Under the pieces are notes generated by a model. It searched no databases, was not told where the DNA came from, and saw only the letters and a list, made by a program, of their open reading frames with translations. 64,000 bases of DNA, taken from positions 15,049,143 to 15,113,142 of the forward strand of contig CAVNZM010000003.1 in NCBI GenBank assembly GCA_963693365.1, given 5' to 3'. Position numbers and translations under genes: made by a program. This DNA is from Amoebidium appalachense. Lineage: Eukaryota > Protista > Ichthyosporea. Every line of letters begins with the position of its first letter. The first letter of the stretch is position 1. Of the stretch, positions 32,098 through 64,000 are shown one piece after another.

Positions 32098-32351
32098 GTA
32101 TTTCGATCTCTTTCCCAGACAAAACAGTGGTTCGCCGTGATTTCAACGACCGCCCAAAGCTCGCCAGGGCCAATGATAGGCGGCGGCCGCACATATGCAT
32201 CGCATGGTATGCAAAGGACTCATGTGGCCGACTATGTCGATAAACGAGCAGAAACATACGAAGGCCCCAACTAGTTCGAAGCAGTCTTGTATAGCTAGTT
32301 TTTACATCCTAGTCATATAGGCAGGTTGAATGCATATTAAACCCACCGATC

Positions 32352-33429: not shown

Positions 33430-34855
33430 GGGGTTAACATAATCGAGACGGGCTCTGGGAGCCTATTTTTAGATACTAATTAAAATTTAACATAACGACC
33501 TCGACCCTTGTCAGGGCGGTATGTTATGCGTGGACGCATACTGTACCCAACCCAACCCCAAAACAAGGATATGAACCGCCACTGACGTTGCCCTGTAGAT
33601 GCACCTCTGCCCCCGTCCACAACCTGCACCCAAAACCCCATGCCCCTGGCACAATGTTATATCGAGTGGAACATAGCAACAGACATGATAACAGACACCA
33701 TCCATACAACCACACTCAGCATGCCCCATCCACAAAGAATTCCTAGCAAAACCTAACATGCCACTGACGAACACCTCCAGACTCATGTGGCGTACACCTC
33801 CAGACTCTCTTGCTGGCCATTCCTCTACCCGACAAAGACTCCTACTACGTAGGTCCCGGTGGTTTGGGAATGCCTCCGCCCCAACCGTGCCCTACCCAGC
33901 GGTGTGTCTAAGGCCTACTGCTGCACTGGGCACCACAACACTACTCAACAACACTACGGGCAGCCACTCCAAAGGGCCTCAACACCAGGCCCAGGGCAGC
34001 CACTCCAAGGGGCCTCAGCACCAGGCCCTTTGACGACGGGGGTTCACAACAGTGGGGGCCTGCCACTGCCATGACTACACTTCGACCCCCCCCCAGCCCC
34101 CTCGTCAGAGGGCCGAGCTCCCAGACAGCAGCAGGACTTTCTATTCCACTGACCCTAACCGCACACGTCGCCAACACAGGACTCATACACACGTCGAAAA
34201 CGCCAGGCACCAGTAGAAAACTCGCCGAAAAATAACACCACACAATAGTTACTCCCATACAAACAACAACCCAAGAGATCTAGACGGCCTACCCCCTAAT
34301 AAAACCTTCATACCAGCAACACGGTCACCGACATCCCTGCCCCCCACGACCGGGCTGTTTACACCACGCGTTGCCCCCGCTCCTTGCAGTTGTCGCAGGT
34401 GCACACCTGGGAAAGAGCCTGGCGCCGGCTCTTGCTGTCCCGCCCAAAGACGCTAGCCTGGCCCATCTGTTATCCCGTTGTGGCCGTGGCTGGTAGGGCT
34501 GGCAGTAGCGCCGTGGGGAGGGTGACCGCCGCCGGTCCCCTCTGAGGCCTCTGCTGGGCAAACGGCCCTGAGCTTGCTAAGTCACCTAGGGAGGTCAAGG
34601 TCCTTAGCGAGGACTAAGTCCCCTGTGATACTAGTCCTACTGCTCATGTTGCCTATGCCAACTGTTGCTAGCTGTAGGTCTGTGTGTGCGTATGTTTCTT
34701 CTACCTCTAACCGTCGAAAAAGGCCTAAGACAAAACCACTCATAACCGCTAGGCGTGAAAAAAAAAAAAACTAGGGGTGAAAGCAACAGCCCAGAAGGAC
34801 TAACAGTGCGTGTGCCCCCTCCCTGCAAAAAACTGCAGAGAAAGGGGGTGTAGCT

Positions 34856-35462: not shown

Positions 35463-36720
35463 ACTCCCCCCTCACACAGAAAATAACTGAGTTCCACCTC
35501 AGTAAAAACTACCTAAAAACAAAATAAAGTTATGTGCTGAGCGACTACAACTACCGCTAACCATGCAGGAAGCAGCATATAACATATAACATAAAACATA
35601 TACATGCATCCACGCACCACCCCAGCATGGTTAGTACCCAACCCAACCCCAAAACAAGGATATGAACCGCCACTGACTGTCGTATCCTAATATATGTGTA
35701 CTAGAGACGCGGCACTCTACTAAGTGTACACACACGAAAAGGAACGAACGTGTACAGAAAAACGGTAAAGTTTATTAAGACCAGGCTCCGACGGGCAAAA
35801 CTTAGATCCGTACGGATTGAGTCTAAGTTACGACTGAGGCCATCAAGGCCGTGCCCTCAAAGATCATCATCACCTGGCCCCCTACGATGCCACATTCCAT
35901 TAACATTCCGATCTACTTTTATCGTGCGCCTGCACGAGCTAAGTCGATCTACTCAACTAATATATTTATCCAAGTCTCACCCCTCACCCTCCCCCTAGTG
36001 GCACCGCAGAGTCTAAATCTACATTTCATACTATCCTCCCCCCCCCCTCCCTCCCCCCCTTTCCTCTATATCTACATATATAAATACGTTTGGCAACATA
36101 TACTATCAAACCTTGCCAATCCTTACAAAAGGGCTTCTGCCCGAACAATCACATTCCTAAGTCCTCCTACGATCTATCCTACACACTAATTAGAATTCTA
36201 TTGGACGGCTGTCCCGGCTGACGTGGTCCAATGCCCTGCGCCGGCAGAGGCAAGATGCACGCAGCTGTTCAGCTATCTTGAGGCCCCGGACTTGATCTTG
36301 ATGATCTGTGGACCCGGGCCACCCCCCCCCCCCCCCCCCCCCGATCTCGATCGTAGACTTAGGCTAATCTGCTGAGACGGATTAGTATATGTCAACTCCC
36401 CCCCCCGGCCCCCGGAAAAGCTGAGTCCCACCTCAGTCACATTACATCTAACACCCCCTAAAAAGACATAGACTAATCAGTCTCCCAAAAAAAAAAAAAA
36501 ATTAAATAAATAAATTACGAAGAAAAATAATAAATTAATCTACACCATAAGCTTGATACCTACGGAGACACCTATGATAATAAATTAAATTCCTACGACT
36601 ACGTTCACACTCCCTCCTCGGTCTCCTCCCCCCCCTCCCCCTCCCCCCGTGTGTCTACGTGTATTTGCATCACTCCCCCCCCCCCGGCCCCCTCCCCCCA
36701 CCGACTTTTTCACACCACGA

Positions 36721-39700
36721 TTAAACTGAGGAATAACTCTCTTCAAAGTTTGGCCGAGAGGGAGCACTAGGCAACTCCCTCTGCACTAATCTAGCCTCAT
36801 AAGCACGAATAGAAAACGGGCAATCCAAATGAAACTCAGGCAACCACTGATCTTCCTGATAACCTCCCTCAAAACGAATTAAATAATAATTTACCTTACC
36901 TTCCTTACCTTCGATAACCTTTTTATCCATAATTTTATCTACTGCAGCCTCCGATACATCCACCGACCCGTCATAGTCGGGGGTGAATGCATCTAACACT
37001 CGACGGCCCTCCGGCCGTTTAACCCTAAGGGCCCTATCATAATATTCCTTTATATTATCTACATTATAAAATCTAACATCACTCTCATTATCTAACCTCT
37101 GCACCTTATATTCCGTCGGACCTAACCTAGCCACTATTTTATACGGGCCAATGAAAAGAGGCAACCATTTCTTACCATACTTACGAAGACCTTCACCTTC
37201 ACCCTTACCTTCCTGCTCCTGCTTATATCTCTTTTTCCTAGTATGATCCCTAATTAAAACTAAAGTACCCTCGGCAAATTCACGTAACGGATGTGTGGAC
37301 ACGTCTGCACGTGTCTGTGCCTGCTGTGTACGGGCCAGAGCTGCATCACGTGCAGCCCGGGCCCGGGTTAGTAGCTGCTCCCGGAACTCAGTCCAGTGGG
37401 GATAAGTTAGTCGGTCAGCCCCCGCCCCCCATCGGCAAAAGTGCCGTATCTAACAAACTAATAGCCTCCTGCCCATAGACCAAATAAAACGGAGAAAAAC
37501 CAGTCACAGCATGAGGGGTAGAATTATATGAATGAGCAATAAACCTAGACATATGATCCCAATCATTAGCCTCCACATCCACCATTTTGCCAAAGGACAT
37601 CTGAAACACTGCATGCACACGTTCAGAGATGGCATTTGCTTGAGGGTGATATGCAGACGTAGTGATATGAGCTACCCTTAAAATTTTACACACCTCCGAC
37701 ACCAACTGATTTAAAAACACACGACTCCTATCCGTTAACAAAACACGAGGACAACCAAACCTAAGACAAATTTCATCCACAAAAATACGAGCAAACAAAA
37801 CGGCATTAGCAGTGGGGAGAGGAAAAACTTCAACCCAACGAGTGGCCACATCGGTGACGGTAACAAGAACAGTGTTACCCGCAACCGTAGAATTAAAAGG
37901 ACCGACCACATCCACTGCTACCCTTTCAAACATACGAACATTAAAATCCCTAATAAACGACGGGCGGGAACGAGAGTGGGGACTCTCATTCCTTTCCTGA
38001 CAATGCATGCATGACAACACATAATCCCTCACCTCCCTACTCATACCCGGCCAAAAATACGAACGATTAACACGAAGCAACGTCCTATTTACACCTAAAT
38101 GACCAGCCATGGGATGCTCATGCACCATATGCAAAACCTCAGGCACAAGTGCCGTCGGGACCCAAACTCGGTGTCCGTCTGGCCCAGAACAATGATAAAC
38201 TAAATCCTGCTCTACCTGACACATTTTTGCTAACTTAGCTACCTTAATCATCTGCCTTTTATTTTTAAATTTAATCGAATCAACCGGCCCCTTTAAATAA
38301 TTCTTAACCAGACCAATCAACACATCTTCCTCCTGAGCTAAGATCAAAGCCGTAGGTGCTAAGGCAGGGGCCGAGCCATGAGACTCGGTCCCGACCTCAG
38401 ACACAGACAAATACCTCCCCCCCCCTCCCCTACACTGATAAGCAAGCAACCCCGGAACCCAAGAAGACACATCAACAGACACAGCATCTATTCCTTTCTG
38501 CTCACTCTCCCCCCCCCCCTTCCCCCCCCTCCCCCCCCGTCTCTCACTATCCCCCCCTCCCCCTCCTTCTCTTCTTCAAACAAAATATAAGCAGCACGAG
38601 AGAGAGCATCACAGTCAACCATTGTTTCACCCTTGGCATAAAACAATTTATAGGAGAACTCACCGAGAGCCGCGGCCCACTTCTGCATCCTCTCGTTGAC
38701 CAGACGAGTGGTGCCGGCCATGGCTAGGCAGGGCTTGTGGTCGGTGTAGACCTCAAACGTCCTGCCTGCGAGTATATACCTCCATGCCTGTGAGACTGCC
38801 CAAAAGATAGCATGGGACTCTCTCTCCGGATTGCTATATCTACGTTCACTTTTACTAAATGAACGACTAGCATAAGCAATCACTCTATCCTGCCCCTCCT
38901 GCACTTGATATAACACGGCCCCCTCAGCAACCTTACTTGCATCACACCGAACTTTAAACATTCCCCCCCCGGCCGAAAAATCAGGATGAACAAGCATACT
39001 CGAAGACTGCAAAGCTAACTTAAGCTTTTCGAAAGCAGAAACAGCATCAACATTCCAATCTATTCTATTCTTCTTCTCCCCCCCCGTCTGACTAGTTAAC
39101 GGCAAAGCAAGCATACTGTAATCCTTAATATAACGACGAAGATAATTAGTTAAACCTAAAAATTGCCTTAGTTGAGTGACAGTCTGAGGACGGGGCCACT
39201 CAACTATGGCCCGGATTTTCTCCGGATCAGGGGCAAGACCATTACTAGACACAATATGACCTAAAAACTTAACCTCCGGCACACCAATCACAGTCTTGCT
39301 ACCGCTAATACGAAGACCAGACTCACCCAAAGCTAAAAATACTTTTTCACAATTATTAACTAACTCCTCAAATGACCTACCTTTAATTAAAACATCATCC
39401 AAATAAGGGTGGCATACATCCAAATGAGGGTGGAGAATTTTATACATTACCCGGCACAACATAGCTGGAGAGGAGAGCAAACCCATCGGCACCACCTTGT
39501 ACTGGAACAGCTGGTCCCCCAGTGCAAAGGCAGTCTTCTCCTTGCTGCTCTCCTCCAACCTTATCTGCCAAAAAGCTGCTTTTAAATCAAGTTTAGCAAA
39601 GTGAGTATAGCCGTGCAGCTGTGAAAGCTGCTCGTCTATGTTAGGGAGAGGCCATTGGTCTGCCTTAGTGATCCGATTCAGAGCCCTGTAATCGTTCACT

Positions 39701-41508
39701 AGACGCCAAGACCCGTCGGGCTTCTTAACCAATAGCACCGGACTTCTCCACGGACTCGAACTATGCTCCACATGACCCTTTTTTAACATATCACTCACTA
39801 TTATTAGCGCATCCGACAATTTATACTGCTCCATTCTATAGCTAGGCATCACTACCGGCCTATTATCACCTGTGTCGATCTGCATTTCAAACCCTTTAAC
39901 GAAGCCTACTTCGGTATCATCGGCCAGAAATGCAAACCGGGTCCTATCAAATAACTTAGCTAGCGATTTTTTTCTGTTCTACCGTCCAATCCCCCTCCTT
40001 CATACCAAACGGCAATACTAACTCCGGGTTACCCCCATCACAAGTGGATGCATCCTTATTCACCGGAGTGCCACTTAACATTTCACCTCCTGTATTACAT
40101 CGGTGCTGCTCGGGGTGAGGTGGAGGTACCTCCGGATATAGGCGGTCACCCTTAGCACCCCCCCTCCCCCCGGCACACCAATGCCCCCGGGCAATTCCTG
40201 ATGAGTTAGTGCATGTATGTGGGGGGCCAGGTCTGTGGCCACCCTGCCCCCCACGGTGTTGGTTAACCCGTCAGATCCACGGGTTAGACCAACACCCTCC
40301 CCCCCTGCCTGCACATTCTCACACCCGGGGTGACCCTCCTTCCTCTTGGGGGTCGGGGGAGTGGGACCGGTGCTGTCCCGGTCCCCCCCCCCATCGTGTC
40401 GGGTGACATTTTGGTGGCTAACGTTAAATAAAGTTGTTCCCCCTCCTCCTGAGTCACCCTTCGACCCGGCATCCTCCTTTTGGGTAATAAGAGAGACCTC
40501 TATACTACCAATCTCATTAGTGAAACTACCGACGGAAACACCTGACCTAATCACTATAGGCTCGATGCCCGGATTCACTAATTCTATTTCTATTGTCTTA
40601 TCCGGCCATACCCTACTAAGGGTCCATTGGGCCACCTCCTGAAATGGGGTTTTCGGAGTAAAAACCCCTAAATCCCCTATCCTAACATGATTGCCGGCTC
40701 GGACACGTACCATTTGGCACTGATAAGGCTCGATTACTACTTCAGCTACCGTTCTAGCACCAGACTGATAACCGTCGAGCCCATCATGGGTTTTAATTTT
40801 AACGCCGGACTGCAATTCTAAAACATTCGTACGTTCAAACAAAGCATTCACATGTCTACGGAAAAATGGGGCTCCCAACAAAACACTTTGAGCTAAATCC
40901 TTAACCACATAACAAGCAATATGCATAGCCTGGCCACCTATCTCACACGGCAACACACAAACACCTTCCACAGACATACTACTATTATTAGCACTACCTA
41001 GGGCTGTGCTAGAAGCATCTAAAATAGGAATTTCCCCCCCGGCCTGATTAAAACGACGAATAAACGAAGCATGCACACAATTAACCTGAGCCCCTCCATC
41101 GAGCAAAGCAACAGCCTTCGACTTACCATCAGCTAACCATACGTCTATATAATGCCGGCTAAAACCAACTAAATCCTCCTCCAATTCAAGCAACACATCA
41201 TCACTCACACCCAATCCCTGCCCACGAAGACTCACACCCTCGATACCTACGTGCAACATACCTACCTGTGGTGCCTGCACGGGTGGGGTGGGGAGTGTAT
41301 GTGATGTGGGTGGTGGTGGAGTGTGTGTGTGTGGTGTGTGGGTGGGTGGTGTGTGTGTGTTTGGTGTATGTGTGGGTGTGTGTGTGGGTGTAGGTGTGTC
41401 TGCAACCGTCGTATGTTGTTGTGGTGGTGTGTTTCTACGTGTCTGTGCCTTCCCCCCCCTTCCCCCTTTACTCGTGTGTGTCCCCCCCCCTCCCGGAAAC
41501 AATGGCAC
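36721..41508 (-). CDS. Gypsy Pol: aspartic protease, RT, RNase H, integrase and C-terminal chromodomain (frameshifted)
   Basis: Motifs LLDGGA; SPVLLVKKPDGSWRLVNDYRALN, YLDD; CDAS, YTDHKP; HEHPMAGHLG...CMHC, VAVDVVGP, AYHPQANAISER; FIGPYKI; VDKIMDKK...YYLIRFEGGYQEDQWLPEFHL. Several frame breaks, some at poly-G/C runs. Confidence 0.95.
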
Positions 41509-41845
41509 AGAAACCCCCCTCCGGTGTGGTTAGAATAAACACCGGGTTGGGACAAGAAACACTGAGACCATCCACTTGTGGCTGGGGAACCTCCCCCCAA
41601 CCACAAAACATTCACACCATTCATACCTTTGGTAGAGTCACCCCACAAACATTCATGCCATACCACCTCGACGCTGTCTTGAGGACCCACGACGATGCCC
41701 GGCTCCCACACGTATCGGGGCGGTGAGGGGGCAAAGGGAAGCTTAACCTGGGGTGGGGGAGGGTGAAGGTTCTCTGCAACCTGGGGGGGACCGATACTGT
41801 CCCCCCCCCTCCCTCAGTGACCCCAGCTTCCCCCTCCCCCGGAAC

Positions 41846-41990: not shown

Positions 41991-42009
41991 CCGTCATCAG
42001 CAATCTTGT

Positions 42010-43660
42010 TCGGCGATCCGGATCCCATCCAGGACACCTTTTGGGGGTCCTCCCACCATATCCACCCCACACATCCACCACAACCTACCTACATGATGAC
42101 ATCTAGATGGGATGTGGGGGTCGTAAACAATTTGGATGGCCACTATCCATAACTCATCTATGATGTCCAGGAGGGGATAAAGGGGACTTGATATCATCCA
42201 TCATCCAGAACAGCACCGCAAGGCATCTACAATGGTGTCATGAAATGATCTACAACCCATCCTAAATGCATATTAAATGCCCCGATGTTCAAAATTTTCC
42301 AAACACAATTTGGTGGGGTTTGGGTGGTGATATGGACCATCTAAAGACCACATTAAATGCTCTTTTCTTGTACCCATCCCAAAGTACACCCTAAGTACTC
42401 CAGGACGTCCAAGTGTACTTCTAGTTTATTTCCGGTGCACATAGACATTATATGGACCACTTTATATGATCATATTTTCTTCCCATCCATTTCTACCCCC
42501 TAAGTCCCCTATGATGTCCAAGACTAGTTTTAGTGCATTTTATACGATCCATATTGTTTTTTCGCTGTTATATGCACACCATATGCACTTTTGATGATCG
42601 ACAAAGTGTCTGTATGTGCTCTTGTAGATGGACCTCATCCACGACGTCATAGATGGTATGTGGATTGGGTGGTGCACATGATAGGCATATATGGTTGCTT
42701 TAATGTTGCTGGACGCTATTCCTGGTATACAGCATCTTTTTGACGTCTTTAAGTGGTCTGTTAATGAACCTTTTAGGACCATTTAGTTGTCATGAGGGAA
42801 AACCATATTTGCATCTTATATGGCCTTTACGTGGTATTTTAGATGCCTTTCGGATGATCATCATGAGGTTTCTGGGATGGGTTTGTGACATCTTTTTGAC
42901 CCTGGCTCGATCGATTCCGTGCACTTGAAGGCATCTACATGTGGACCTATGGTGTTGATGATGTGGTATTACAGATCTCTGAATATCCTATCCTTTTCCC
43001 ATCCATATGTACCCCCTAGGTACCCTCAGATGTCTAAGTGTATTTCTGGTGCATATTATATAATCATTCCTGATTTATCCCTGTTCTAGGCACAGCATGT
43101 GCACTTTATGATATCTAGTTAGGGTCTCTATGTGATCTTTGCGATGGTCCACATCCACGACGTCATAGATGGTTTGTGGATTACCCGGTGCACATGATAG
43201 GCATATATAGATGCTATAATGTTGCTGGATGCAATTCTCATACTAGAATGGAGTCCACAGCATCTCTCTAGGGTCTTTAAGTGGTCCTTGTATGCACTTT
43301 TCAGGAGCCGTTAGTTGTCTGAAGATGAATCTATATATGCACATTATGGTGTCTTGCAATTGTCCCTTTGATGTGTTTTGGATGGTCATCATGAGATTCC
43401 TGGGATGGGTTCGAGGCATCTTTTGGACCCAGGCTAGATCGATTCCGTGCACTTTTAAGCATCGCAAGATGGACATCAGGTGAATGTAAAGATGCTATAT
43501 TGATAAGTTCTGATATCTTTTTAGCCATAAACTTATACCATTTGGATGTCAACATGTATATAATGATATCAGCAGGAGAATGTAAAGATGCTATAACGAT
43601 AAGTTCTGATATCTTTTTCGTAGTAAACCTATACTATTTGGATGTCAATATATACCTAAA
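42010..43660. repeat. Left subterminal repeat region
   Basis: Many GATGTC/GACATC-like motifs. An ~515-bp diverged duplication (CATCCACGACGTCATAGATGG at about 42637 and 43152) and an ~96-bp duplication at about 43482 and 43578. Confidence 0.75.
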
Positions 43661-43778
43661 AGGTTGGGTTGCAGTCCACTTAAACTTCTGACATCGGCAC
43701 AGCGCCTATATGTTACAGGCTACTGACACACGTGAAAACCAAACCCCCTACACCCCCACTCATCAACAAACAGAAAAT

Positions 43779-44942
43779 TTACTCTGCGTCTTCGCCCATC
43801 TCCTCGTCTGGCTCTAGCCCAGCCTGTCCGAGAAACAACTCTTGTGCTTCCTCATCGAAGCCACACATGGCAAGGTATGAGGGAAGCTCTATGTCGTCCA
43901 TTGAAGCGCCCATCTCTGCAACTAGCCCAGGGAGGTATTCTCCCATGTCTATTGGGTCGCTATAACGGAAATTCCCACTGGCGGCTCTGACTGTGATATA
44001 TTGGTAGATTGCCGTCCACAACTGTTGCTCCCTGTCTTTCAGGTTTTTTTGAAACACCCTGTTTACCTCGGCTTTTGTGTCCGGGTGCGACCAGTCAATC
44101 TCGGCGTTAATGTTGGGCAGCACAGTTTCCATTTCTATCCGCGTGTAGTACTTTTGGCTTGTAGCGAAGTGGAGAAGGTGCCAACCACGCACTTCTTCAA
44201 AGGATATCTCCACAACTTTATCTTCCTCCCATGTAAAATTACAGGCCCCTGGCACCATGAGTTGTCGTACAGCCGCCGACGTGTCGCGGTTAAGGACGGC
44301 AATATTTGCGAGCCTAACCATATGGTCGGCGAATGCAGTGATAAATCGTTGTTGGGCATCGTTCAACGAAGCGGAGATGTCTGTCTGTGCTGCCAAATGA
44401 GCATCCCTGACCATTCGGTATGTATCGACGGCCATACGCTGTGTTATGTTCCCGCCAATACCGTCCATGGCGCCAGTGTGGAAGGCCCAGGCGTTGAGCA
44501 CTTGCCGTTTCAGCAGTTGTAGACTGCGGTTTGTACGCCTCCCCTTGTCGGTTTTGCGGTATGCAGTCTGGTTTTTTCGCTTGCGGTAAGCAATCCATGT
44601 AGCGCGTTCATATTCTGAATCATCGCTCACGGCCCACACTAGTGCATGCTCAGCCTTAGGAACGCGATGGGTCTGCAGCAGCATGCCTATTTCGTAGCCA
44701 GTGTAATGGCGAATTGTATCTCGGTGGGCGTCAATAAGGTGTTGAGAGAGAACACGGATGCCCTGTTTATTACAAAGGGCGCAGAAGCCCGCGGGGTGCC
44801 TAGAACCCTCGTCACATGCCACGTATTCACCATGGTGTTCAACGTAAAAGTTAACGTATGCAGTCACCATTTCTGAGGTAAATGGTGAGCCCTGTGTAAC
44901 AGCATGTGCGGGTGCATTTACAGCAACGTTTCGGGCCGCCAT
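43779..44942 (-). CDS. Intronless 387-aa orphan protein with a C2H2-like finger and acidic tail (transposon cargo)
   Basis: Clean ATG-to-stop ORF with CALCNKQGIRVLSQHLIDAH, basic RKRKNQ...RKTDKGRR and an acidic C-terminus. Confidence 0.8.
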   Translation of the reverse strand: MAARNVAVNAPAHAVTQGSPFTSEMVTAYVNFYVEHHGEYVACDEGSRHPAGFCALCNKQGIRVLSQHLIDAHRDTIRHYTGYEIGMLLQTHRVPKAEHALVWAVSDDSEYERATWIAYRKRKNQTAYRKTDKGRRTNRSLQLLKRQVLNAWAFHTGAMDGIGGNITQRMAVDTYRMVRDAHLAAQTDISASLNDAQQRFITAFADHMVRLANIAVLNRDTSAAVRQLMVPGACNFTWEEDKVVEISFEEVRGWHLLHFATSQKYYTRIEMETVLPNINAEIDWSHPDTKAEVNRVFQKNLKDREQQLWTAIYQYITVRAASGNFRYSDPIDMGEYLPGLVAEMGASMDDIELPSYLAMCGFDEEAQELFLGQAGLEPDEEMGEDAE

Positions 44943-45975
44943 TTTTGTTCAATCATTGGTGGATAGCAGTATGCCAGGCAGCAAAAAGCTACTGTGCATG
45001 TGTGGCCGTGAGCATATGCAAACCTACTGACTGACTGACTGATGATATGGTTTCCACAGTGTGATCGACTCCGCGCGCCGCGCGCCGCTCCGGGCGGTGC
45101 GCGGCGTGGAATGAAAGCCAATGAATATTCACGGATTTGAGAGATAGGATTTCGCGTCATGTGATTGGATCACATAATTTTTCTGGAGGCGTGCAAAGCA
45201 GACCACCATCCTTGCCGGGAGACCGCCAAATTGATTTTGATCACGCTTTAATGTGGTAGAACTGGCTCAGGAATTAACAGCTGAAAATTATAAGATTTAT
45301 AAAAGTAATACTTTGATAAAACACGCCTATATTATTCATTTAAAGGTTGCCAGACAGAGGCGTGCAAATGAAGGGAGCCAGCCATTCCACCCATATGGCT
45401 AGTGTAGATAATTACCAACAACCTTGGTTGTAAAGATATATTTTGATATAATTTATAACAGATAATAATATTGTTGCATAAATGAATGATTCATGAAAGA
45501 AGTCGTATCAGATATGGCAGAGGAACAACACCCTTGTGTCACAGACTTGGTGCACGTGCGCGTGCACAAATTCCATCGTCCGAGACATCATAAACCCGCC
45601 ACTAAGTCGTCATTTAGTTGTCCATACGGGCCCATGTGGGCGGGCAGGCTTACGGTAACTGTCAGCATTGTTACTAGATATACTAATGGCCACAACCCTT
45701 TCCGTTATTTGTTAGCTGATGTGGCCACTAGAGGGTCCACAGATACATATAGATGCGGCAACGATTGGCATTATTAAGTGAATCCAAGCCGAAAACAAAA
45801 ATTATGCACTCGATTCAGACATCAACATATTGTCAAACAGATCTCATAAAGATATCCGAAAGGTTCGGATGTGGGGGTGATCGAGATGGGAAAAAAGGAA
45901 AATGTAGTCTAAAAGTCCCCATAAAGGCATCTTTTAAGGGTACGACAATTTGCATAGCCTCACCCATTGCTACCT

Positions 45976-52946
<6,971 letters not shown>

Positions 52947-54368
52947 TTTGACGCGCTTTACCGCACATCACGTGCATACACAAAGTTTATCAAAACAGTG
53001 TATATACATATATATTTTATAGTACAGATAGATCTCTCGTGTGCGTCCAGCTGGGATGTGGATGGGTTGTGTTGATCATGATGTCCCTTGCCTGATGTCG
53101 TGGAGTCCGCGTTGACCCCCGGGTGGTGTTTCCTACAACATGAAGATGTCCAATTATCCTAATCGTGGTGATTGGACATTTATCACGTACTCGGATAGTT
53201 CCAATGCGGCGATTGGTCTGCTATGGCATAAACTCTATCTTGCTGCGTTGCTTCGTCCAACACTGATGCTACTAGGTGCGCATGCCCATATTTCATTGAC
53301 ATAAAAAATAACAAACTTCAAAGTAAATATACAAGCTGAATGTGTTATTAGAACAACCGTGGAGATTTCAACGACCTGTATGTTGTTTGGTTTGCGTGCG
53401 TTGCAAATATCATTGGTGATCTGTCATGCATACATGTGGCCACTCTAGGCAGCGCGCGCACTTCGTAAACATGGGAATCCACTGGCATAGCCTACCTAAT
53501 CGTTCGGTCCTTATATAAGTGTCAATAAATGTGGACAGTGTAAAAAAAAAAAAAAAAACAATAAAAAATGCAGAAGAGTTCAACTATTAATATTCCAATA
53601 GTATCATATTAATTGCTCATTCTCCCTGCGGCCACTCGATAAGCTCAATGTCAGGTCCACACCTTCCCATCCGATAGACCCACATACCTGAGCGCGGCAG
53701 GGAAAACAGGTGCAAGTCAAAAGTTGGTTATTTTCTTTCGTAATGGACGTTAGAAATTACTAGAAAATTTGCACTTTAAATTGTCTGGTAATTTAATATT
53801 TATGTTCATTTCATTGATCTCTTATGCTGAGTTTTCCACGTCTGCTTCTTATAACTTCTGCCTCAGCGCGAGTTAAAACAGGAAAGACGGATGGTGATCC
53901 CCACATACAACGTACTGTAATAGTAGAATTATGGGTGCTGACAAATTTCAAGCGGATAAAAGATGTCGTCGACACAAAGCAAGAAAAAAAATGCCTCTAC
54001 TTGAAACTAAGGCTTTTTATAAACACTTAAAATGTGAGAATATCGGGTTTCTGCAGAATGTTTTGCTGTAATTGTATTGTCATTTTATGGCCAACAAGTC
54101 TTGATGACCAGGGTCCAACCTCAGCAAATTGCAGGAGGTGTGGGGGGAAACATATCATATGTTTTCGCCGTCTGTGATTGGGTTACGCGTTTGATTAGCT
54201 TCAGCTTATGCGATGATCAACCAATTAAAAGTTTTTCATGGGCATAGGATTGCAATCCATTTCCCAACCGGAACTGCAACAGAAACCCCACATAACACAT
54301 CTTTGTGGTCCATATGACCACATATCGTCATCGCTCTGTCTCGCGCTTACGCCTTCCACGTCTCCACC
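52947..54368. promoter_or_regulatory. Putative bidirectional promoter region between the transposase and the accessory gene
   Basis: Divergent ATGs at 52946 and 54369. AT-rich, with several CCAAT/ATTGG boxes and a palindromic CTTATATAAG near 53510. Confidence 0.4.
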
Positions 54369-57300
54369 ATGCCAAAGACCGCGAAAATGGGCGCCACAAC
54401 GACCAAGCTTCCCAAGCGCAAAAAGGTTGAGACGCCGTTCGACGACTCGGACTGCAGCGAGCCCGTGGCCGCCAGCAAGGGCGGCAAGGGCGGCAAGGGC
54501 GGCAAGGATAGCAAGGCCGGGGGTAGGGGCAGGGAGAATCCCAGCAAGGCTGATAGCCCTACTGGGCAGTCAGTCGGCATTCTCCTCAAAGGCATCACCT
54601 CAGTTACGGCCCCGGCCGCCCTCGCCATGCTGCAGCCGAAGAGGAAAGGTGGGTTGTGTTTGTGTTTTACACCCCCTGCTGCATAAATAGTCGTTACGCG
54701 TGTGCTCGTTGTCAGTTTCACCTAGGCTTTCTCACTGTAACATCAAAAACTTTTAAAATCTTCAAACATAAAAACAACATTGCGCTTCGTCTTTCATGGA
54801 TAGGGAAAAGGCTTTAAAGGCACTTCGTGCCCTGCACAGTGCTGAAGAGAAACGGGAGGGCTGTTGTTTATTAGAGGGGTTTGCACCTCCTGTTCCTTTT
54901 CGTGATGCGATGGAACAGTTTTCGACCAAAGAGATAAAAGAGCAAGCGTGTAGGCAAACAGTAACTCGCGTGTCCGAGTCATGGTTCGAGATAAGCCGGG
55001 AGCCTGTCAGCGTGGACCTTTCCAAGTGTCAAACGTTGCCTCAAGATGTTAGTGGTTTGGGTGAAATGAGCAGTGAGCAGATAGCGCAGTTGTTTGAGGA
55101 AAACCTCGAAGGTGTTGGTGGTGTCTATGCATCCGATGTCGAGGTGGATGGTGATCAAATATTCGACGAACGCATTTTCAATGTAACTGCAATCAGTGAC
55201 TTCACGCCGTTGGGAAGAAATCATTTCGGGGAAACAATGCCAGGAATCAATGTTGCCATGTTGTACGCGCAGTTGTCTGTCTTGGGTTTAACAGTGTTTG
55301 GTGCACACATTGAAGATGCCGCGCTGGCCTCAGCAAGCCTTCTTTTGTGGGGCCTTAAGGTGTGGTTTATCCACCCTCCCTCCCAGTACAAACGGCTCTT
55401 ACAGCTGGCCCGCAACGAATTGCCAGGCTCGTGCAGAAACCCACTTCAGCACAAAAATTATATCCCTCGGTCTCCGCGTTACCTTGCATCCATAGGGTTG
55501 GCACCTGTCATAGTCGTACAGCGCGCCGGCGACTTGGTACAAACCACACCTGGAGCGCTTCACTATGGCTTTCAGGTTGGCCCGAACATTGCGCTAGCAG
55601 TGAACACCGCAACTTTTCTCTGGATCGACCAGCTTGCGCTGTATCCCACGTGCGAGTGTCGGGAACACTTCTTGCCTAGTGTGGAGAACATGATAGCGGG
55701 ATTCCAGTCAGTTACACAGGAAAACATACCCGTTGCTATTGGTCAAACCCCCCCCCCCCCCCCCCCCCCCCCCCGCACTCACCCACCCACACTCCCCGTT
55801 GTATTTGTACTTTTGTTCTGTTGACTGCATTCAACCCTCCCCCCCCCCCCCCCCCCCCTCCCCCTCCGTTTATATACTCTCCCTTCACCCACTCCACTCT
55901 TTCTAAACACACCTGCTGCTAGTGTGGTTTACTCGCTCCCCCCACTCGCCTGTCCACGTCAACTAGTTCTTTTGTGTTTTCGAAACCTCTGCCTTCACCC
56001 ACGATATGTTGATGGGGATATCCATACGATAGATCATTTTTGGTGTAGAAATGGTTGGGAAAGGGGGGGATTCGGTGGTGTTTTGGGTCATATGATGACC
56101 TCCAATAGTTATCTGGATCATGCCGGAAAATACTATCTGTTGCCAGGGTTGCCCTGTTTCCGCACTTCTGTTAGTTTTCTACGATTCCAACAATTGTACT
56201 AACATTAGTCCTACTATTCTTCAGTCACAGAAGTCCAGGAAGATGACGAGAACAACTTCAACGACGAGGATGAATGCCCCTACAACCGCGAGGATCAGCT
56301 CGAGGTCCTTTTTTACACACTGGTGTTGTCGGGCAAGCACCCAACCTACACCAACCAGAGGATGCGAAAGCTCATCCGCTCCTACAGTCGCGCCGCCATG
56401 AGGGAGCACTTGCGCGCCCTCCTGGGCAAGGAGGCGAGACTGCCAGTGCTTGATGATCCAGAGCCGCCTCCGTCTCCATCTGGGCCTGGGCTGGGCCGCA
56501 CCCCTACCACCCCTTCCCGTCGCCCAACCCCCTCCCCCTCCAAGAAACACCCCGAGACATTATCCTTTCAGGAGACCACCCAGTTCCTGGTAGGCAACCT
56601 ATCCCTCCCTTGGTTTCGTTTTGATTTTGTTTCTCTTACCTATTGTAGTAGTTATGTTTCAAACAACCCTCCCCCCACCAATCTCTGTGATCAAAGCTCA
56701 TCCTTGTGGAGGAATTGTTGCCATCCCACCACCTCATGCTGCCACCTCCTAATGCATTCATCCCCCCCTACCCGCACTAAACCCATCCCTACTACATCCA
56801 CACCCTTATTCTGTCTAAGTGGATAAACTGAAGGAACTATTCAAACTTGGTCATTTCAAAGCAACTGCTACAGCACGTTTCCAGCATGGAGGATTTATAG
56901 CTCCATCAAGATTTATTCACATCGTCATTCTTGTTTTCTAACATTTTCCATCACCGTCAGAATGACTATGTGGAAAAGTCCTCCAAGACCCACAACATCT
57001 ACCAGCACCTTGTGCTGGAGTCACCCCAGATCAACAACGCCCACGATGGGGACCTGGCTGGAAAGTTCGTCGAGGTTCTTCAGAAAGTCGAGACGTCAAG
57101 CGCGAAGCTGAATCAGGAGGCCGTGGCCAAGTGGGTCCACATCATCCGCAACTGTGTGCGTAGCGATCCCGCACAGAAGTATATCTCCAAAATCCGCACG
57201 GGCATCACCTCCATCAAGTCCAATGTCCACCAGCACGTCCGCAACTTCCTGAGGACTGGGTACGTTGTACCTGGGACCAATCTCGATGTATTCCCCCCCC

Positions 57301-59532
57301 CCCCCCCCCCCCCCCCCCCCCGCGCGTCCCCCGCCTCCGTACTCAACGGACTCCTTCTATGACAACGGGCTTAACTCTTCTCACACGCATCCTAGCACAC
57401 AGGTTACTTTGTTCTAATCTACTTGTATGCCATTAACGTCATTTGTACAGGGATGGAGATATGTAGCTGTTTTGTTCTAATCTACTTGTATGCCATTAAC
57501 GTCATTTGTACAGGGATGGAGATATGTAGCTGTTTCAAGTAGTAATGTAGTAATAATACTTTCTTTTCATTGTATTTATATAATATTTTATTGACAGTCT
57601 TCTGTAATACACAATCATGGACTAACCCCCCCCCCCCCCCCCCCCCCCCCTCCTCCCCCCCCCCCCCCACAACGCCACCGCCACCTGCTTCACCACCACT
57701 CGCTTCTGTTTCCTTTCTTTTGCTGCATTCAAACACACATTCACAGCTGGTCGCCTACGCCCCAACTGCCGATGAGCGACCAGCGCTGTGGCTGGCCCTC
57801 CTGGATGAGGTCAAGCTGAATGGCCAGCCGTGCGGCCGCGTGTACTCTGTCGACCCTGAAACGGGCAACCCGTTCGGGTACCAGCCGTTTTCCCGCCTGT
57901 TCAGCAGCATCTCATTGAAGGCTGTGCGGCTTGTCCTTGGCAACAAGACTGCCTTGGTATGTAATGTCCCCAACAAATCACTTTCAACACATTCTGAGTC
58001 TAGACTACATCAAAGGACCCCCCCCCCCCCCCCCCCCTTGCCTCCTGCCCACCACCCACTCACACATACTCGCTCTTCAACCAACACACGTGTGTACACA
58101 CACATACACACACACACACTCCCTTTCACCCTTCCACGTTCTCCTCTGATCACCGGTTTAACTTCCCAAATAACTTGCTTTCATCGTATATATTTACTTG
58201 CATAACACTTTCTTTCCCCCCCCCCCCCCCCCCCCCCCCGCTCCCCTCCACCATGAACATTCCACGAATCGAATCGAAAAAAAAATTGATGCATATTCCT
58301 AGGTCTGCAAATGCTTGGAATATTTCAAGAATAAAGACAGTTTTAAGCATCATCATAGAGAATTACGGTCACATTCTTACATCATGAAGGGCCATAATGT
58401 TGTCGTCATATGATCCTAATGACATCCATTGGATGTCAGTAAGACCATATGACGACAACATTATCTGTCTCTTCTCTTCTCTTCCTTATGTGTATTCCTT
58501 CCGAACTTTACCTCTTTTGAAAACAGATCACTAAAGAAGCACTGGGCAGGATATCGCCAGAGACCACAGGGCATTCTTCCGGCTGGTCGTCAACTGCTTC
58601 GAGGTGTCGCTGCGAGACCCCAACCAACACAAGCTCATCAACAAGTGGACCCCCGTGAAATTCGAATGTGACGACCCCAACTATGACGGTGCTGCGGCCG
58701 AAGGCAACATCAAGTTGGTGGGTCCCCCCCCCCCCCCCCCCCCCTTTTGGCTAGGCAATAGGATGCTGACACTTGAGCTGTGGGGTGTTTCATCATGGCT
58801 CACGAGACTTACGCTAAGTTCATTATAATTCCTACCCTCCCCCCCCCCCCCCTTATGGTGTGATTATCGCTGACTACACTATAGCGTGCCGACACTCGAG
58901 CTAGTTAGCATTTAGTCTGTTCTGTTTTATAAAAGACTTCTTTGTTCACATCTGCAAACCCCCCCCCCCCCCCCCCATAAAAAAAAAAACACAAACAACA
59001 CAATCACATCGTTGGAAAAAGTTTTCTAGACTGACTTCTGTAAAGCATCTGACTCTGTGCCCGCCATTACCTGCAGTACATCTCAAACTACGACAACTAC
59101 GTGAAGGACCAGATGGTGACAGCCGAGCGGGAGGCCGGGGAGGAGTTGCGCAGGCAGCAGGAGGAGGCCGATGCGGAGAGGGAGGCAGAGGCACTGGCGG
59201 AGCGGGAGCGGGAGGAGCAGGCCGCTAAGGAGGCCGCGTCTCTGCACAAGGAGGCCCCAGACCCCAAGGTGGACCAACGTAAAAACGAGACGGACGCGGC
59301 CAAGGTCGGCAAGGAGGGCGAGGATGTCGCTGTGGGCGGCACGGAGGGTGACAGCGAGGCCGTGCAGCAGGTGGAGGGGGTGGAGGAGGAGGCGGCTGAG
59401 TTTCAAGGTGAGGACTCTCCGGCTGAGTTCAACGAGGCTGAGGGAGAGACCCCCCTTACCAGGTCGGCGATGAAGAGAAGGCGCCAACAGGGTCATGCCA
59501 GCCCCCACAAAAAGCCCAAATTCACCCCTTAG
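54369..59532 (+). CDS. Multi-exon transposon accessory protein of unknown function (NLSs, acidic C-terminus)
   Basis: GC3-rich exons at 54369-54648, 56231-56589, 56961-57259, possibly 57396-57402, 57747-57956, about 58527/58550-58716 and 59077-59532. NLS-like PKRKKV and KRRR...KKPK. Two junctions are uncertain. Confidence 0.7.
54796..55824 (+). CDS. JmjC-domain protein, KDM4/JMJD2-like histone demethylase
   Basis: Motifs VYASDV, PGINVAMLY, FGAHIEDAALAS (HxE), GLKVWF, CRNPLQHK, VVQRAGDLVQTTPGALHYGFQVGPNIALAVN and CEC occur in the same order as in the KDM4 catalytic domain. Confidence 0.88.
   Translation: MDREKALKALRALHSAEEKREGCCLLEGFAPPVPFRDAMEQFSTKEIKEQACRQTVTRVSESWFEISREPVSVDLSKCQTLPQDVSGLGEMSSEQIAQLFEENLEGVGGVYASDVEVDGDQIFDERIFNVTAISDFTPLGRNHFGETMPGINVAMLYAQLSVLGLTVFGAHIEDAALASASLLLWGLKVWFIHPPSQYKRLLQLARNELPGSCRNPLQHKNYIPRSPRYLASIGLAPVIVVQRAGDLVQTTPGALHYGFQVGPNIALAVNTATFLWIDQLALYPTCECREHFLPSVENMIAGFQSVTQENIPVAIGQTPPPPPPPPRTHPPTLPVVFVLLFC
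57408..57535. repeat. 63-bp tandem duplication in an intron
   Basis: GTTCTAATCTACTTGTATGCC... occurs at 57411 and 57474. Confidence 0.9.
58394..58464. repeat. 71-bp intronic palindrome
   Basis: ATAATGTTGTCGTCATATG...TGACATCCA-T-TGGATGTCA...CATATGACGACAACATTAT. Confidence 0.9.
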
Positions 59533-59714
59533 CCCCCCACCTCCCCCCCCCCCTCCCCCTTCCCCCCAAGAAATGTACTGCCCCTTTTTTGTAGGGGATT
59601 ATTTTGGATTTTATTTTGCAAGTTTGTTTACTTTGTTTAGTTTTGTTTTTTTCTCATCAATTTATAGTGTTTCTTTTCTTGAATTTTAATGTTTTGAATA
59701 GTTGAGACAGTAGA

Positions 59715-60676
59715 GGGGTGTCCCAGTGGGACATCCCGTAGATGTAAAGAGTGGAGACACGTCCCAGTGGGACGTGTCATAAGAAATTAAAGATTGTTCA
59801 GCACGGTCAACGACACTTCACTGTGCAGCCACGGGGAGGAAAGGGAAGGGGGGGGGGGGGGGGGGGGGGGGAAACTGGGGGGAACTGACATCATCTTGGC
59901 ATCAACCGGGGCACAAAATGATGCTTTAATATAGATTTTTGGACGATTAGAATACAGTATAATGATCATATTAAATTGCTTGTAGTGATCGTTTTGTCGA
60001 CTTATTATGCTGCACAAGTTGTCACAAAGTAAACATAAAGGTGACATGTGTATGTCGTGAATCGGTGTGCATGAAATAAAGATCATGTAGAGTGATCCAG
60101 AAGGTATCTTTGTATGGTCGGCAACAGATCCGTTTGATGACATAAAGGCATCGTGAAATAAGGATTCCGATGCCCCGAGATACTTTAAAGGCAACATTTA
60201 GTTCTCCTTATGTGCCGTTTTAGATGCAGAGAAGTCAACATGAAGACCTCTAAATCACCTCTCGTTGCAATAAGGTAATGTACATCATGTCCCTTTAACG
60301 ATATCGTTAGATGTCTGTTTGTTGCCTTAATTTCTTATTTGAGCTCTTTAAAGTGGCCTTAAAGATGACATAAAAGGGTCTTGATGTGCAGGATCTTACG
60401 ATACCTATATTTTAGGGGTAGAAAAGGTGGGGATTGGGGGGGGTTACGGATGGGTAGTGGTTAGGTTTAGGTGTAGAAAACGATGTCAGGAAAAATGTAT
60501 ATAAAGATGTCAGGAAATTTCCAGACATCTTTATGATAACTTGAAAGTCGTCTTTAAATGGTCCGAAAATATCCTGACATCTTTTCGATGGGATATGGGG
60601 TAGATAGGGTTAAAGGGTGTGATGTAGATGACTTTGATTAGATGCTGACGTCTTAGATGGCTTATGGATGGATTCG
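59715..60676. repeat. Right subterminal region of the Plavaka-type element
   Basis: Recurrent GATGTC/GACATC/GATGAC motifs and two GTCCCAGTGGGAC palindromes at about 59720 and 59761. Confidence 0.65.
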
Positions 60677-60696
60677 ACAAGATTGCTGATGGTGTG

Positions 60697-61880
60697 CACC
60701 ACGGCCCCCCCTTCCCCCCCTGCCCCCCTCGGCCTCTCTCACCACCATTTCCACCCCTCCCTCTAGCCTGCCCACCACCACGAGCAAGATAAGGGGCAAA
60801 CCTCTCGGTGAACTGCTGCTGTTGTCCTCCACGTCCACCTCGGCCACGACCGCCGTGTCCACCCCGGTCGCCGCCACGGCCACCCCGGAAGCCGAAGCCC
60901 CCTCGGCCAGAGAAGACGGCCTGGGAGAGCTCGGCAACCTGCTTGACCAACATGGTGAGTGCATCTGGCTGTTCACCCTCTTTTTTCTCTTTTTCCCCCT
61001 TCGGTCCACTCTCCTTCTTTTTCTTGTCTACTTCCATCACCTCCTTTTTATCCCTCTTATTGAACTTCACCTCGTGCATGGCAAGCAAGTGACGTTTAAC
61101 ATGCAACACCACCTCATCTACATCATCATGCTCCCCAAACATGCGTGCAGTGTCTGTGTTTACAGAGAGAGCCTTACGAGCAAACTCGAATTTTTCCCTA
61201 TCACTCACGTCACCAGCTAACTCACAAAGGTCTTCAAAGACCCGATATTCCCTCTCAAAGAATGCACGAGCTTCTACGGGGGACATCTCTAAAGTGGGAA
61301 AGGTATACTTCCATTCTCTGAGCTGGGCCCGGAAGGTACGGCGCCGGTCGGCCGTCAGGTATCGGCCGACGAGCCGGGCCGTATACTCGAGCTCGTTTTC
61401 CGGCCGTGTGAAGGCCTCGAGCTCCCCGTCCACGTCGTCGGTGCTGTTCTCGTCCTCGTCGTCGGGGATGAACCGTGCGGCCAGACGTTTCTGGCCGAGC
61501 GTCCGGGGCACCATCTCGTCCCTCCCCTCGTCGTACTGCTGCTCGTATATACGAGCCGTCACCTGGGGGGCCTGCTCGGCCCGGTACGGGTGCTCCTCCA
61601 TCAGGGTGCATAAGTCGGCCATTGTTTTGTGGTCGATGCACTGTTTGATCATTAAGCACGAGGCCGCCACAGTGGGGGCCTTCTTTGTGTCTAACACTAG
61701 TGTGGGTGTGTTAGCTAGGAGTGTCCTAAGCCACCTAGGTATTTCCGAGTCGTGTTTGAGTATAAAACTGAAAGCTGTGGTCTGTCTAACGTCTAGTGTA
61801 TGAACCTGTGGTACCTGTGTGTGCAGGGAGCTATCCTCCGCTGCCAGTGCGTAGAACATGTCTACGTTAAACTTAGCCAT
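60697..61880 (-). CDS. Gypsy gag N-terminal part, split by the DNA transposon
   Basis: ATG lies 146 bp downstream of the 5' LTR. The predicted helical body is followed by an RGG-rich nucleocapsid tract that stops at the TIR. Confidence 0.85.
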
Positions 61881-64000
61881 TGTGTGGTGTTCGGGTGGTT
61901 GTGTTTATGTTTTTTTTTTTTTTTTTTTTTTTTTTTCTGTGTGTTTGAGGTGTAGCAACAGCCCAGAAGGAACTGTCACCGCGTTACCCTAGCGCGAAAA
62001 ACCGCACTAAAAGAAAGGTGTAGCTTGTCGTATCCTAATATATGTGTACTAGAGACGCGGCACTCTACTAAGTGTACACACACGAAAAGGAACGAACGTG
62101 TACAGAAAAACGGTAAAGTTTATTAAGACCAGGCTCCGACGGGCAAAACTTAGATCCGTACGGATTGAGTCTAAGTTACGACTGAGGCCATCAAGGCCGT
62201 GCCCTCAAAGATCATCATCACCTGGCCCCCTACGATGCCACATTCCATTAACATTCCGATCTACTTTTATCGTGCGCCTGCACGAGCTAAGTCGATCTAC
62301 TCAACTAATATATTTATCCAAGTCTCACCCCCTCACCCTCCCCCTAGTGGCACCGCAGAGTCTAAATCTACATTTCATACTATCCTCCCCCCCCCCTCCC
62401 TCCCCCCCTTTCCTCTATATCTACATATATAAATACGTTTGGCAACATATACTATCAAACCTTGCCAATCCTTACAAAAGGGCTTCTGCCCGAACAATCA
62501 CATTCCTAAGTCCTCCTACAATCTATCCTACACACTAATTAGAATTCTATTGGACGGCTGTCCCGGCTGACGTGGTCCAATGCCCTGCGCCGGCAGAGGC
62601 AAGATGCACGCAGCTGTTCAGCTATCTTGAGGCCCCGGACTTGATCTTGATGATCTGTGGACCCGGGCCACCCCCCCCCCCCCCCCCCCCCGATCTCGAT
62701 CGTAGACTTAGGCTAATCTGCTGAGACGGATTAGTATATGTCACTGACGTTGCCCTGTAGATGCACCTCTGCCCCCGTCCACAACCTGCACCCAAAACCC
62801 CATGCCCCTGGCACAATGTTATATCGAGTGGAACATAGCAACAGACATGATAACAGACACCATCCATACAACCACACTCAGCATGCCCCATCCACAAAGA
62901 ATTCCTAGCAAAACCTAACATGCCACTGACGAACACCTCCAGACTCATGTGGCGTACACCTCCAGACTCTCTTGCTGGCCATTCCTCTACCCGACAAAGA
63001 CTCCTACTACGTAGGTCCCGGTGGTTTGGGAATGCCTCCGCCCCAACCGTGCCCTACCCAGCGGTGTGTCTAAGGCCTACTGCTGCACTGGGCACCACAA
63101 CACTACTCAACAACACTACGGGCAGCCACTCCAAAGGGCCTCAACACCAGGCCCAGGGCAGCCACTCCAAGGGGCCTCAGCACCAGGCCCTTTGACGACG
63201 GGGGTTCACAACAGTGGGGGCCTGCCACTGCCATGACTACACTTCGACCCCCCCCCCAGCCCCCTCGTCAGAGGGCCGAGCTCCCAGACAGCAGCAGGAC
63301 TTTCTATTCCACTGACCCTAACCGCACACGTCGCCAACACAGGACTCATACACACGTCGAAAACGCCAGGCACCAGTAGAAAACTCGCCGAAAAATAACA
63401 CCACACAATAGTTACTCCCATACAAACAACAACCCAAGAGATCTAGACGGCCTACCCCCTAATAAAACCTTCATACCAGCAACACGGTCACCGACATCCC
63501 TGCCCCCCACGACCGGGCTGTTTACACCACGCGTTGCCCCCGCTCCTTGCAGTTGTCGCAGGTGCACACCTGGGAAAGAGCCTGGCGCCGGCTCTTGCTG
63601 TCCCGCCCAAAGACGCTAGCCTGGCCCATCTGTTATCCCGTTGTGGCCGTGGCTGGTAGGGCTGGCAGTAGCGCCGTGGGGAGGGTGACCGCCGCCGGTC
63701 CCCTCTGAGGCCTCTGCTGGGCAAACGGCCCTGAGCTTGCTAAGTCACCTAGGGAGGTCAAGGTCCTTAGCGAGGACTAAGTCCCCTGTGATACTAGTCC
63801 TACTGCTCATGTTGCCTATGCCAACTGTTGCTAGCTGTAGGTCTGTGTGTGCGTATGTTTCTTCTACCTCTAACCGTCGAAAAAGGCCTAAGACAAAACC
63901 ACTCATAACCGCTAGGCGTGAAAAAAAAAAACTAGGGGTGAAAGCAACAGCCCAGAAGGACTAACAGTGCGTGTGCCCCCTCCCTGCAACAAACTGCAGA

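Follow-up and report, generated by a model that had tools for sequence, protein, structure and literature searches.

A PlavakaB-type DNA transposon of Amoebidium appalachense carrying a KDM4-like JmjC core with a possible anti-silencing role

What would a DNA transposon gain from carrying the catalytic core of a histone demethylase? The question is raised by a 64,000-nt stretch of the Amoebidium appalachense genome (GCA_963693365.1, contig CAVNZM010000003.1, positions 15,049,143 to 15,113,142 of the forward strand; hereafter the window), in which an element of 18,697 bp (41995-60691, delimited from the window sequence and from contigs of sequencing runs) encloses a Plavaka transposase gene, an accessory gene with a KDM4-like JmjC frame in its first intron, and an intronless open reading frame (ORF) with a finger-like motif (Table 1). 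The anatomy of this element is solid; its function we infer. The reading that is tentatively preferred here, at somewhat short of an even chance and judged from sequence, is that the KDM4-like exon works as an eraser, retained by a recently mobile PlavakaB element and joined to a C-terminal part specific to that element, and that it would lower H3K9-type methylation and weaken silencing.

Ends, insertion site and transposase

The element is bounded by a perfect 15-bp inverted repeat that occurs once per strand in the window. From the window alone its ends are ambiguous by a few bases; they were settled by a contig of run X13 containing the uninterrupted Gypsy site, which defines a 2-bp GT target-site duplication (TSD), and by a contig of run X5 that tracks the right end to 60691 and then continues into 427 different letters, representing a second insertion site seen for the right end only. 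Alternative, EnSpm-like ends (CAC..GTG) were ruled out by the uninterrupted site. The initial annotation had described a giant Plavaka-type unit of 18.7 kb bounded by terminal inverted repeats (TIRs) at 41991-60696; the TIR-bounded unit and its Plavaka type are upheld, but those ends lie 4 and 5 bases too far out, and "giant" is generous for 18.7 kb. Over 718 columns the long terminal repeats (LTRs) of the surrounding Gypsy retrotransposon, at 35678-36394 and at 62026-62743, show one substitution and one indel; the Gypsy has a 5-bp duplication. The Plavaka insertion is therefore younger than a young retrotransposon. Recent insertion as one unit into a Gypsy with almost identical LTRs, as first proposed, agrees with these two differing columns, with the uninterrupted site in X13 and with the second site in X5.

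Contigs of runs X1, X2, X5, X12, X14, X17 and X19 tile the element between transposase exon 1 and its right end; the window itself may derive from one of the compared runs. No gaps and 3-4 substitutions are seen in the JmjC frame in long contigs of X1 (54467-55737), X5 (54718-55657) and X12 (53972-55366), which link it to accessory exon 1 or to the promoter region, and in X1 and X5 the three regions of transposase exon 1, JmjC frame and accessory exons have even contig depth, which is not a copy number. The pieces from X12, X14, X17 and X19 are low-depth, unspliced and near-identical. These contig copies show that the genes travel together in a young family. A comparison of the JmjC contig with three non-coding X1 contigs (4/1271 versus 15/1278 differences, p 0.02) was set aside as a post hoc pick.

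The intact 9-exon DDE transposase of the initial annotation is likewise sustained: in the predicted exon chain, whose introns no contig bridges, all introns are GT-AG and the frame is free of internal stops. A Pfam scan covered 21 ORFs of the window, 16 of them within the element, and two transposase exon ORFs passed the Plavaka family (PF18759) with 74.9 and 41.4 bits (cut-off 26.3). The chain contains, in this order, D329, D433, C453/C456, H687/H691 and E709, among which D329, D433 and E709 are presumably the catalytic D-D-E residues, assigned by motif. The same order is found in the CMCT clade, whose transposases carry C(2)C and H(3-4)H after the second D and before the E (PMC12730594), and PlavakaB elements are characterized by CATCA..TGATG termini and a 2-3-bp TSD (Kojima 2025, PMC12730594). 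With its ends, 2-bp TSD, Plavaka domain and motif order, the element fits PlavakaB. A single weak fungal relative of the transposase was returned (P0156, E 6.5e-6), and transposase exon 3 as query gave zero loci in viral contigs.

The KDM4-like core and its place in the accessory gene

The JmjC frame (54772-55824, unspliced, with a stop at 55824) matches Pfam JmjC at 54.4 bits (cut-off 24), and its closest relatives of solved structure are KDM4C, KDM4D, KDM4B and KDM4A (E 9e-18 to 5e-16), the top matches among 55 PDB sequences; the best KDM5-type PDB sequence follows at E 5.8e-9. The predicted structure of the core has a pLDDT (predicted local distance difference test) of 90, and structure matching places KDM4A first, with residues 1-315 covering KDM4A 22-351 (Z 26.5, root-mean-square deviation 3.6, 292 aligned). 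Residues were compared in an alignment of 90 rows, comprising the query and 89 of the 150 listed matches, the longest having been left out. The iron triad H171/E173/H256 is invariant in 89/89 homologues, and the zinc site C213/H219/C286/C288 agrees with their majority, as do K188, K220, Y157, N270, D114 and D174; residues S181, A268, M155, P149, L267 and Q260 deviate from KDM4A or from the homologue consensus. At the 2-oxoglutarate contact positions of KDM4A (Y132, N198 and K206), Y132 and K206 are kept and N198 is S, as in 11/89 homologues. The KDM4A numbering follows in part PMC9036480 and PMC10540216. On its residues and model the JmjC protein looks catalytically competent, and the KDM4-like JmjC ORF first annotated is confirmed by its Pfam match, by the KDM4 chains heading the PDB matches and by the kept iron and zinc residues.

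In the JmjC protein there is no Pfam match to JmjN and the corresponding profile comparison is non-significant, but the model alignment already starts at KDM4A residue 22; PHD and Tudor readers had no Pfam match in the accessory exon ORFs scanned, a scan without the 58550-58717 exon. The protein is thus KDM4-like, and not a canonical KDM4 orthologue. With human KDM4A-E and yeast Rph1 it shares the whole core, the Fe triad, the Zn site and most residues of the cofactor and methyl-lysine pockets, but differs from KDM4/JMJD2 proteins in its low identity (~26%), the lack of PHD and Tudor domains, the changed N198, S288, Y175 and E169 positions and the absence of the first 21 core residues.

A HMMER scan of 1.84 billion representatives with the JmjC query gave 1454 matches at E 0.001, the closest non-repetitive one being P0002, a Logan record (E 1.4e-34, 39% identity). 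A FastTree analysis with midpoint root covered 145 JmjC cores, made up of the query plus the 144 matches (of 150 listed) that were left after two repetitive and four short ones had been dropped; in it P0002 is sister to the query with support 0.94, on long branches among divergent JmjC-only proteins. P0002 retains these iron and zinc residues together with K188, K220, Y157, N270, D114 and D174; with 39% identity and its sister position, the sub-lineage has thus long been conserved. A word-based search with JmjC returned zero matches; no loci were found in metagenome contigs or in viral contigs, though one scan of the latter counted 2 related stretches, and viral structure matches to the JmjC model were weak (best E 2.6e-6, 10% identity). 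By eye, P0002, whose contigs are <2.4 kb, resembles a genomic read-through of the form exon-intron-JmjC exon-intron, and on either side its residue patterns would suit a phase-1 donor. The environmental JmjC-only KDM4-like proteins P0107, P0016, P0012, P0019 and P0086 group loosely and with weak support close to the query, and contigs bearing members of the P0107 cluster reach 790 kb.

The JmjC frame lies within the first accessory intron, on the same strand as the accessory gene. A 1537-nt contig of run X13 joins five accessory exons at the predicted introns, skipping four introns and starting exactly at the 56225 acceptor; X13 is RNA only by guess, although this contig skips introns. Accessory exon 1, the JmjC frame and transposase exon 1 lack X13 coverage, which is no evidence on their expression. 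The JmjC core ends at a GT with a 27-base C-run following after 6 bases, an intron start that is shared by two of the four contig-bridged introns, and the phase of this donor fits the 56225 acceptor. The JmjC frame is likely one exon of the accessory gene, forming a single protein with the accessory exons, so that the cargo possibly amounts to three genes instead of four. An open frame is kept in each of three spliced models, which encode 601 aa (JmjC skipped), 823 aa (starting at the JmjC ATG) and 887 aa (with a short exon 1). GC content at third codon positions (GC3) is 0.52 in JmjC, 0.54 in the intronless finger-motif ORF, 0.77-0.80 in the accessory exons and 0.66 in the transposase, and the lower values point to later capture of both intronless parts.

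The accessory gene with a nuclear localization signal (NLS) that was first described stands as a spliced 507-aa frame, with NLS-like motifs (PKRKKV and HKKPK) read by eye, but probably not as a gene separate from JmjC; the suggestion that the accessory protein targets the JmjC enzyme is accordingly recast, since both are likely one spliced protein. No family was matched by the accessory 3' exons (Pfam for the scanned exons, an atlas search for one exon, and nothing near the cut-off in NCBIfam). At position 59485 the spliced X13 contig has a stop that cuts the accessory frame 15 codons short and removes the last NLS-like motif (one contig), and an exact 63-bp tandem duplication is present in an accessory intron (57408-57535).

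A possible anti-silencing role and its rivals

The following course of events would connect these parts. The transposase would bind the ends and mobilize the unit, and an older accessory gene would have taken up the JmjC exon in its intron 1. Joined to the 3' exons it would yield the 823-aa form from its own ATG or the 887-aa form with exon 1, the 601-aa skip form being in frame too, and the spliced JmjC-accessory protein is predicted to be nuclear and would act as a lysine demethylase borne by the element. This enzyme may remove H3K9 (or H3K36) methyl groups, with the uncharacterised C-terminal part perhaps supplying targeting in place of PHD and Tudor readers, and in a host with DNMT1 and UHRF1 such demethylation would reduce the maintenance of silencing.

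Both ingredients of this scheme have precedent. The association of fungal Plavaka elements with TET/JBP dioxygenases, invoked in the initial annotation, is borne out for PlavakaB, as the Agaricomycotina PlavakaB include TET/JBP-carrying families (PMC12730594). These have in common with the element the termini, the 2-bp TSD, the transposase motifs and a cargo that might erase a silencing mark, but their cargo is a DNA dioxygenase and their host a fungus, whereas the cargo here is a KDM4-like histone-demethylase core in an ichthyosporean; the word "JmjC" is absent from the main text of PMC12730594. The idea of a histone demethylase acting against silencing, put forward for the element in the initial annotation, had already been proposed for Amoebidium giant-virus insertions, 52 (39%) of which contain multi-exon, KDM4-like JmjC-only genes, whereas public giant-virus genomes lack such genes (Sarre et al. 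2024, PMC11244446). Like the JmjC protein of the element, these KDM4-likes of giant endogenous viral elements (GEVEs) are divergent, lack PHD and Tudor domains, reside in selfish DNA of the same host group and have the same proposed role, and their genes are multi-exon, as is that of the element if the splice model holds; they are, however, found in viral insertions and not in a DNA transposon bounded by TIRs and a TSD. Protein searches returned no GEVE-named KDM4-like among the JmjC relatives. Amoebidium also has "Plavaka giant repeats", tandem, Plavaka-flanked clusters of intron-poor genes of up to 50 kb with many tyrosine recombinases, and the three passages there that name Plavaka make no mention of JmjC (PMC11244446). 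As in the element, a Plavaka transposase stands beside additional genes in these repeats, but the element measures 18.7 kb, its ends are defined and its genes rich in introns, and recombinase families had no Pfam match in its 16 scanned ORFs. Neither JmjC nor Plavaka is mentioned in the available part of PMC12344493.

A literature search that was weak on subscription papers and supplement figure images gave no paper on a KDM4-like gene in a bounded DNA transposon, with Sarre et al. (2024) the one relevant work to emerge, and the combination seems unreported. The VANC proteins of Arabidopsis VANDAL Mutator-like elements are reportedly sequence-specific DNA-binding proteins with a demonstrated anti-silencing effect; they share with the element the concept of transposon-encoded anti-silencing, with no homology claimed. 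Worked examples of this concept are few, and none was found with a histone demethylase. The element offers a bounded, recently mobile and insertion-polymorphic test case in a likely culturable, single-celled lineage related to animals, with a 315-residue core, one splice junction and copies at different sites.

Several observations weigh against a working H3K9 eraser. The KDM4A positions N198, S288, Y175 and E169 are replaced by S, A, M and P, and in near-invariant columns the core has L267 where 81/89 homologues have E and Q260 where 86/89 have N. In KDM4A, E169 binds the R/K preceding the target lysine (PMC10540216), so that with this position changed H3K9 specificity cannot be assumed. The model was built from a KDM4-rich alignment, so its agreement in fold does not count as independent of that in sequence. 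No clean phase-1 acceptor is present ahead of the core start, and among 25 C-runs five have a GT within 6 bases, two of those five lying away from known donors, so the C-run is only suggestive as a donor sign for the JmjC exon. All copies seen are ~99% identical and their differences give no sign of selection; among the differences listed, most are amino-acid-changing in all three genes (3/4 in JmjC, 11/11 in transposase exon 1). The GC3 gap between JmjC (0.52) and the accessory exons (0.77-0.80) is that expected for late capture. H3K9 heterochromatin, finally, is unproven in this host group: the mark shown in Amoebidium is 5-methylcytosine (5mC), which is sufficient to silence there, with DNMT1 and UHRF1 encoded (PMC11244446), and in Creolimax, the sole ichthyosporean to have been chromatin-profiled, a chromatin immunoprecipitation survey gave no repressive state (bioRxiv 10.1101/2025.03.17.643675). 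Creolimax lacks the 5mC enzymes that Amoebidium keeps (PMC11244446) and may thus be a poor proxy. The anti-silencing cargo system first proposed stands in its unit, its Plavaka type and its KDM4-like core with kept catalytic residues; the demethylase activity and its action over the element are putative, and the H3K9 heterochromatin that it presupposes is not established for this host.

The foremost rival is a close one, although less likely than the preferred reading: the JmjC exon may be a passenger, recently taken from a host paralogue or a viral insertion, intronic, normally skipped and of no benefit to the element. An intronless JmjC frame with a GC3 unlike that of its flanking exons suits this explanation, as do the direct in-frame splice of exon 1 to 56225 in the 601-aa form, the neutral look of the listed inter-copy differences, the abundance of KDM4-like donors in Amoebidium given the 52 giant-virus insertions with JmjC genes (PMC11244446) and the "frequent but passive" transfer of TET/JBP between transposon lineages (PMC12730594). 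It fits poorly with a frame that spans the KDM4 core almost end to end, has a phase-compatible donor at its end and is without gaps in the X1, X5 and X12 contigs, and with P0002, which by eye reads like the same layout of a K/G-rich stretch, an intron-like stretch, JmjC and a further intron-like stretch, the N-terminal parts being without BLAST similarity. Were the exon only a passenger, the element would still clearly exemplify the capture of an exon by a non-fungal PlavakaB.

An active enzyme that is useful to the element but directed at another mark or a non-histone lysine, or at broad chromatin opening that eases excision and integration, is the other close rival, less likely again. The deviating substrate-contact positions would favor it, KDM4 enzymes do have non-histone substrates (PMC10540216), Sarre et al. 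raised DNA breaks and integration as a use for the KDM4-likes (PMC11244446), and Creolimax is without a repressive histone state (bioRxiv 10.1101/2025.03.17.643675); against these stand the retained equivalents of D135, D191, K241 and R309, and the possibly poor match between Creolimax, without 5mC enzymes, and Amoebidium, with DNMT1 and UHRF1. A non-autonomous or assembly-made composite, in which a Plavaka encloses unrelated genes that do not move jointly, is very improbable, for although no contig spans the entire unit and the tiling begins to the right of 41995-51100, both ends, the target duplication and the uninterrupted site were seen and overlapping contigs of several runs connect transposase exon 1, JmjC and the right end.

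A further and distinctly speculative reading, which we regard as improbable, is that Plavaka elements ferry the KDM4-like demethylase family in this lineage: an exonized cassette with the eraser would protect whatever carries it, and transposition would move it into the DNA of giant viruses. Such a shuttle would explain the introns of the viral-insertion KDM4-likes, their 39% occurrence and their absence from public giant-virus genomes, and, if true, would make a transposon-encoded histone demethylase common to two kinds of genomic parasite. The element in any event offers a testable origin for the unexplained intron-bearing KDM4-likes of the Amoebidium giant-virus insertions.

Remaining features, CG context and neighborhood

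Table 1. Coordinates of the features of the element and its insertion site in the window
Feature	Position	Strand	Basis
Host Gypsy LTR retrotransposon (outside element), split between gag-like and protease regions	35678-62743	-	Self-comparison, Pfam, LTR alignment
Left TSD copy (GT)	41993-41994		Flanks; X13 uninterrupted site
Left TIR, 15 bp, begins CATCA	41995-42009	+	Sequence
Left subterminal repeats, ~520-bp and 96-bp units, 73-84% alike, CGC/GCG-poor	42469-43659		Sequence
Intronless 387-aa ORF, N-terminal C2H2-like motif	43779-44942	-	ORF list; motif by eye
Plavaka transposase gene, 9 exons, 1043 aa	45976-52946	-	Exon-chain model; Pfam PF18759; motif order
Transposase exons 1-5	52946-52386, 52085-51927, 51629-51265, 50912-50667, 50341-49837	-	Model
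Transposase exons 6-9	49671-49517, 49258-49054, 48757-48505, 46658-45976	-	Model
Repeat array, units ~300-370 bp, within last transposase intron	46908-48361		Self-comparison
Head-to-head region between transposase and accessory/JmjC starts, likely divergent promoter, CGC/GCG not depleted	52947-54368		Sequence
Predicted accessory exon 1, rich in K/G, with NLS-like PKRKKV; donor in phase 1, or else in phase 2 at 54568	54369-54648	+	Model; no bridging contig
KDM4-like catalytic core, 315 codons, in-frame ATG to predicted phase-1 donor	54796-55741	+	Pfam, PDB matches, model
Five spliced accessory exons, 507-aa open frame, NLS-like motif at end	56225-59532	+	X13 contig, 1537 nt
Accessory 3' exons	56225-56589, 56961-57287, 57747-57956, 58550-58717, 59077-59532	+	X13 contig
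Right TIR, terminates in TGATG	60677-60691	-	Sequence; other flank in X5 contig
Right TSD copy (GT)	60692-60693		Flanks; X13 contig

The 387-aa ORF near the left end had been described as an orphan zinc-finger ORF. The frame and its finger-like motif (CxxC-x10-H-x4-H, seen by eye) stand, but it is not a strict orphan, as one relative was found among 3106 candidates, an Amoebidium parasiticum EukProt protein with 52% identity over 55% of the query. This ORF had no Pfam match at E 0.1, an atlas search gave no usable match, its alignment as query to viral contigs gave no loci, and its predicted model (pLDDT 37) is unusable.

CG dinucleotides in CGC/GCG context, the most methylated context in Amoebidium (PMC11244446), are strongly depleted in the neighboring LTR elements (observed/expected 0.00-0.25). 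The ends and the internal repeat array of the element resemble these, with ratios of 0.24, 0.25 and 0.00 at 41995-43770, 46900-48400 and 59880-60691, respectively. There is no depletion in the upstream regions at 44950-45950 and 52950-54360 (1.29 and 1.30), and the cargo genes stand at 0.85-0.95 and the transposase at 0.62. By CGC/GCG content the ends of the element look long resident and its interior looks protected or newer. Use of this content as a sign of methylation escape was rejected as ambiguous, a chitinase gene and host non-coding DNA being undepleted as well. In Copia and Gypsy coding sequence (26152-30739; 36721-41529 and 60531-61904) there is almost no CG in CGC/GCG context, with other CGs undepleted, and one Copia ORF has 0 observed against 45 expected; this pattern is a strong context-specific footprint or avoidance.

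The insertion is nested in three layers at 33540-64000, with the Plavaka element within the Gypsy and the Gypsy within the second copy of a long repeat, which was its target (5-bp duplication) and whose copies at 33580-34839 and 62742-64000 match at 99.7%. Elsewhere in the window, a Copia-like element at 25345-32098 has 926-bp LTRs that are 99.9% alike and a polyprotein in two frames with a break near 28800-29200 (domains by eye), and an inverted copy of its LTR, 94% alike, is located at 2841-3768. A GH18 chitinase-like gene (11185-14111, GC3 0.93) and a gene with ankyrin repeats and a GATA-finger-like motif (20815-21879), both recognized by eye, lie on the minus strand.

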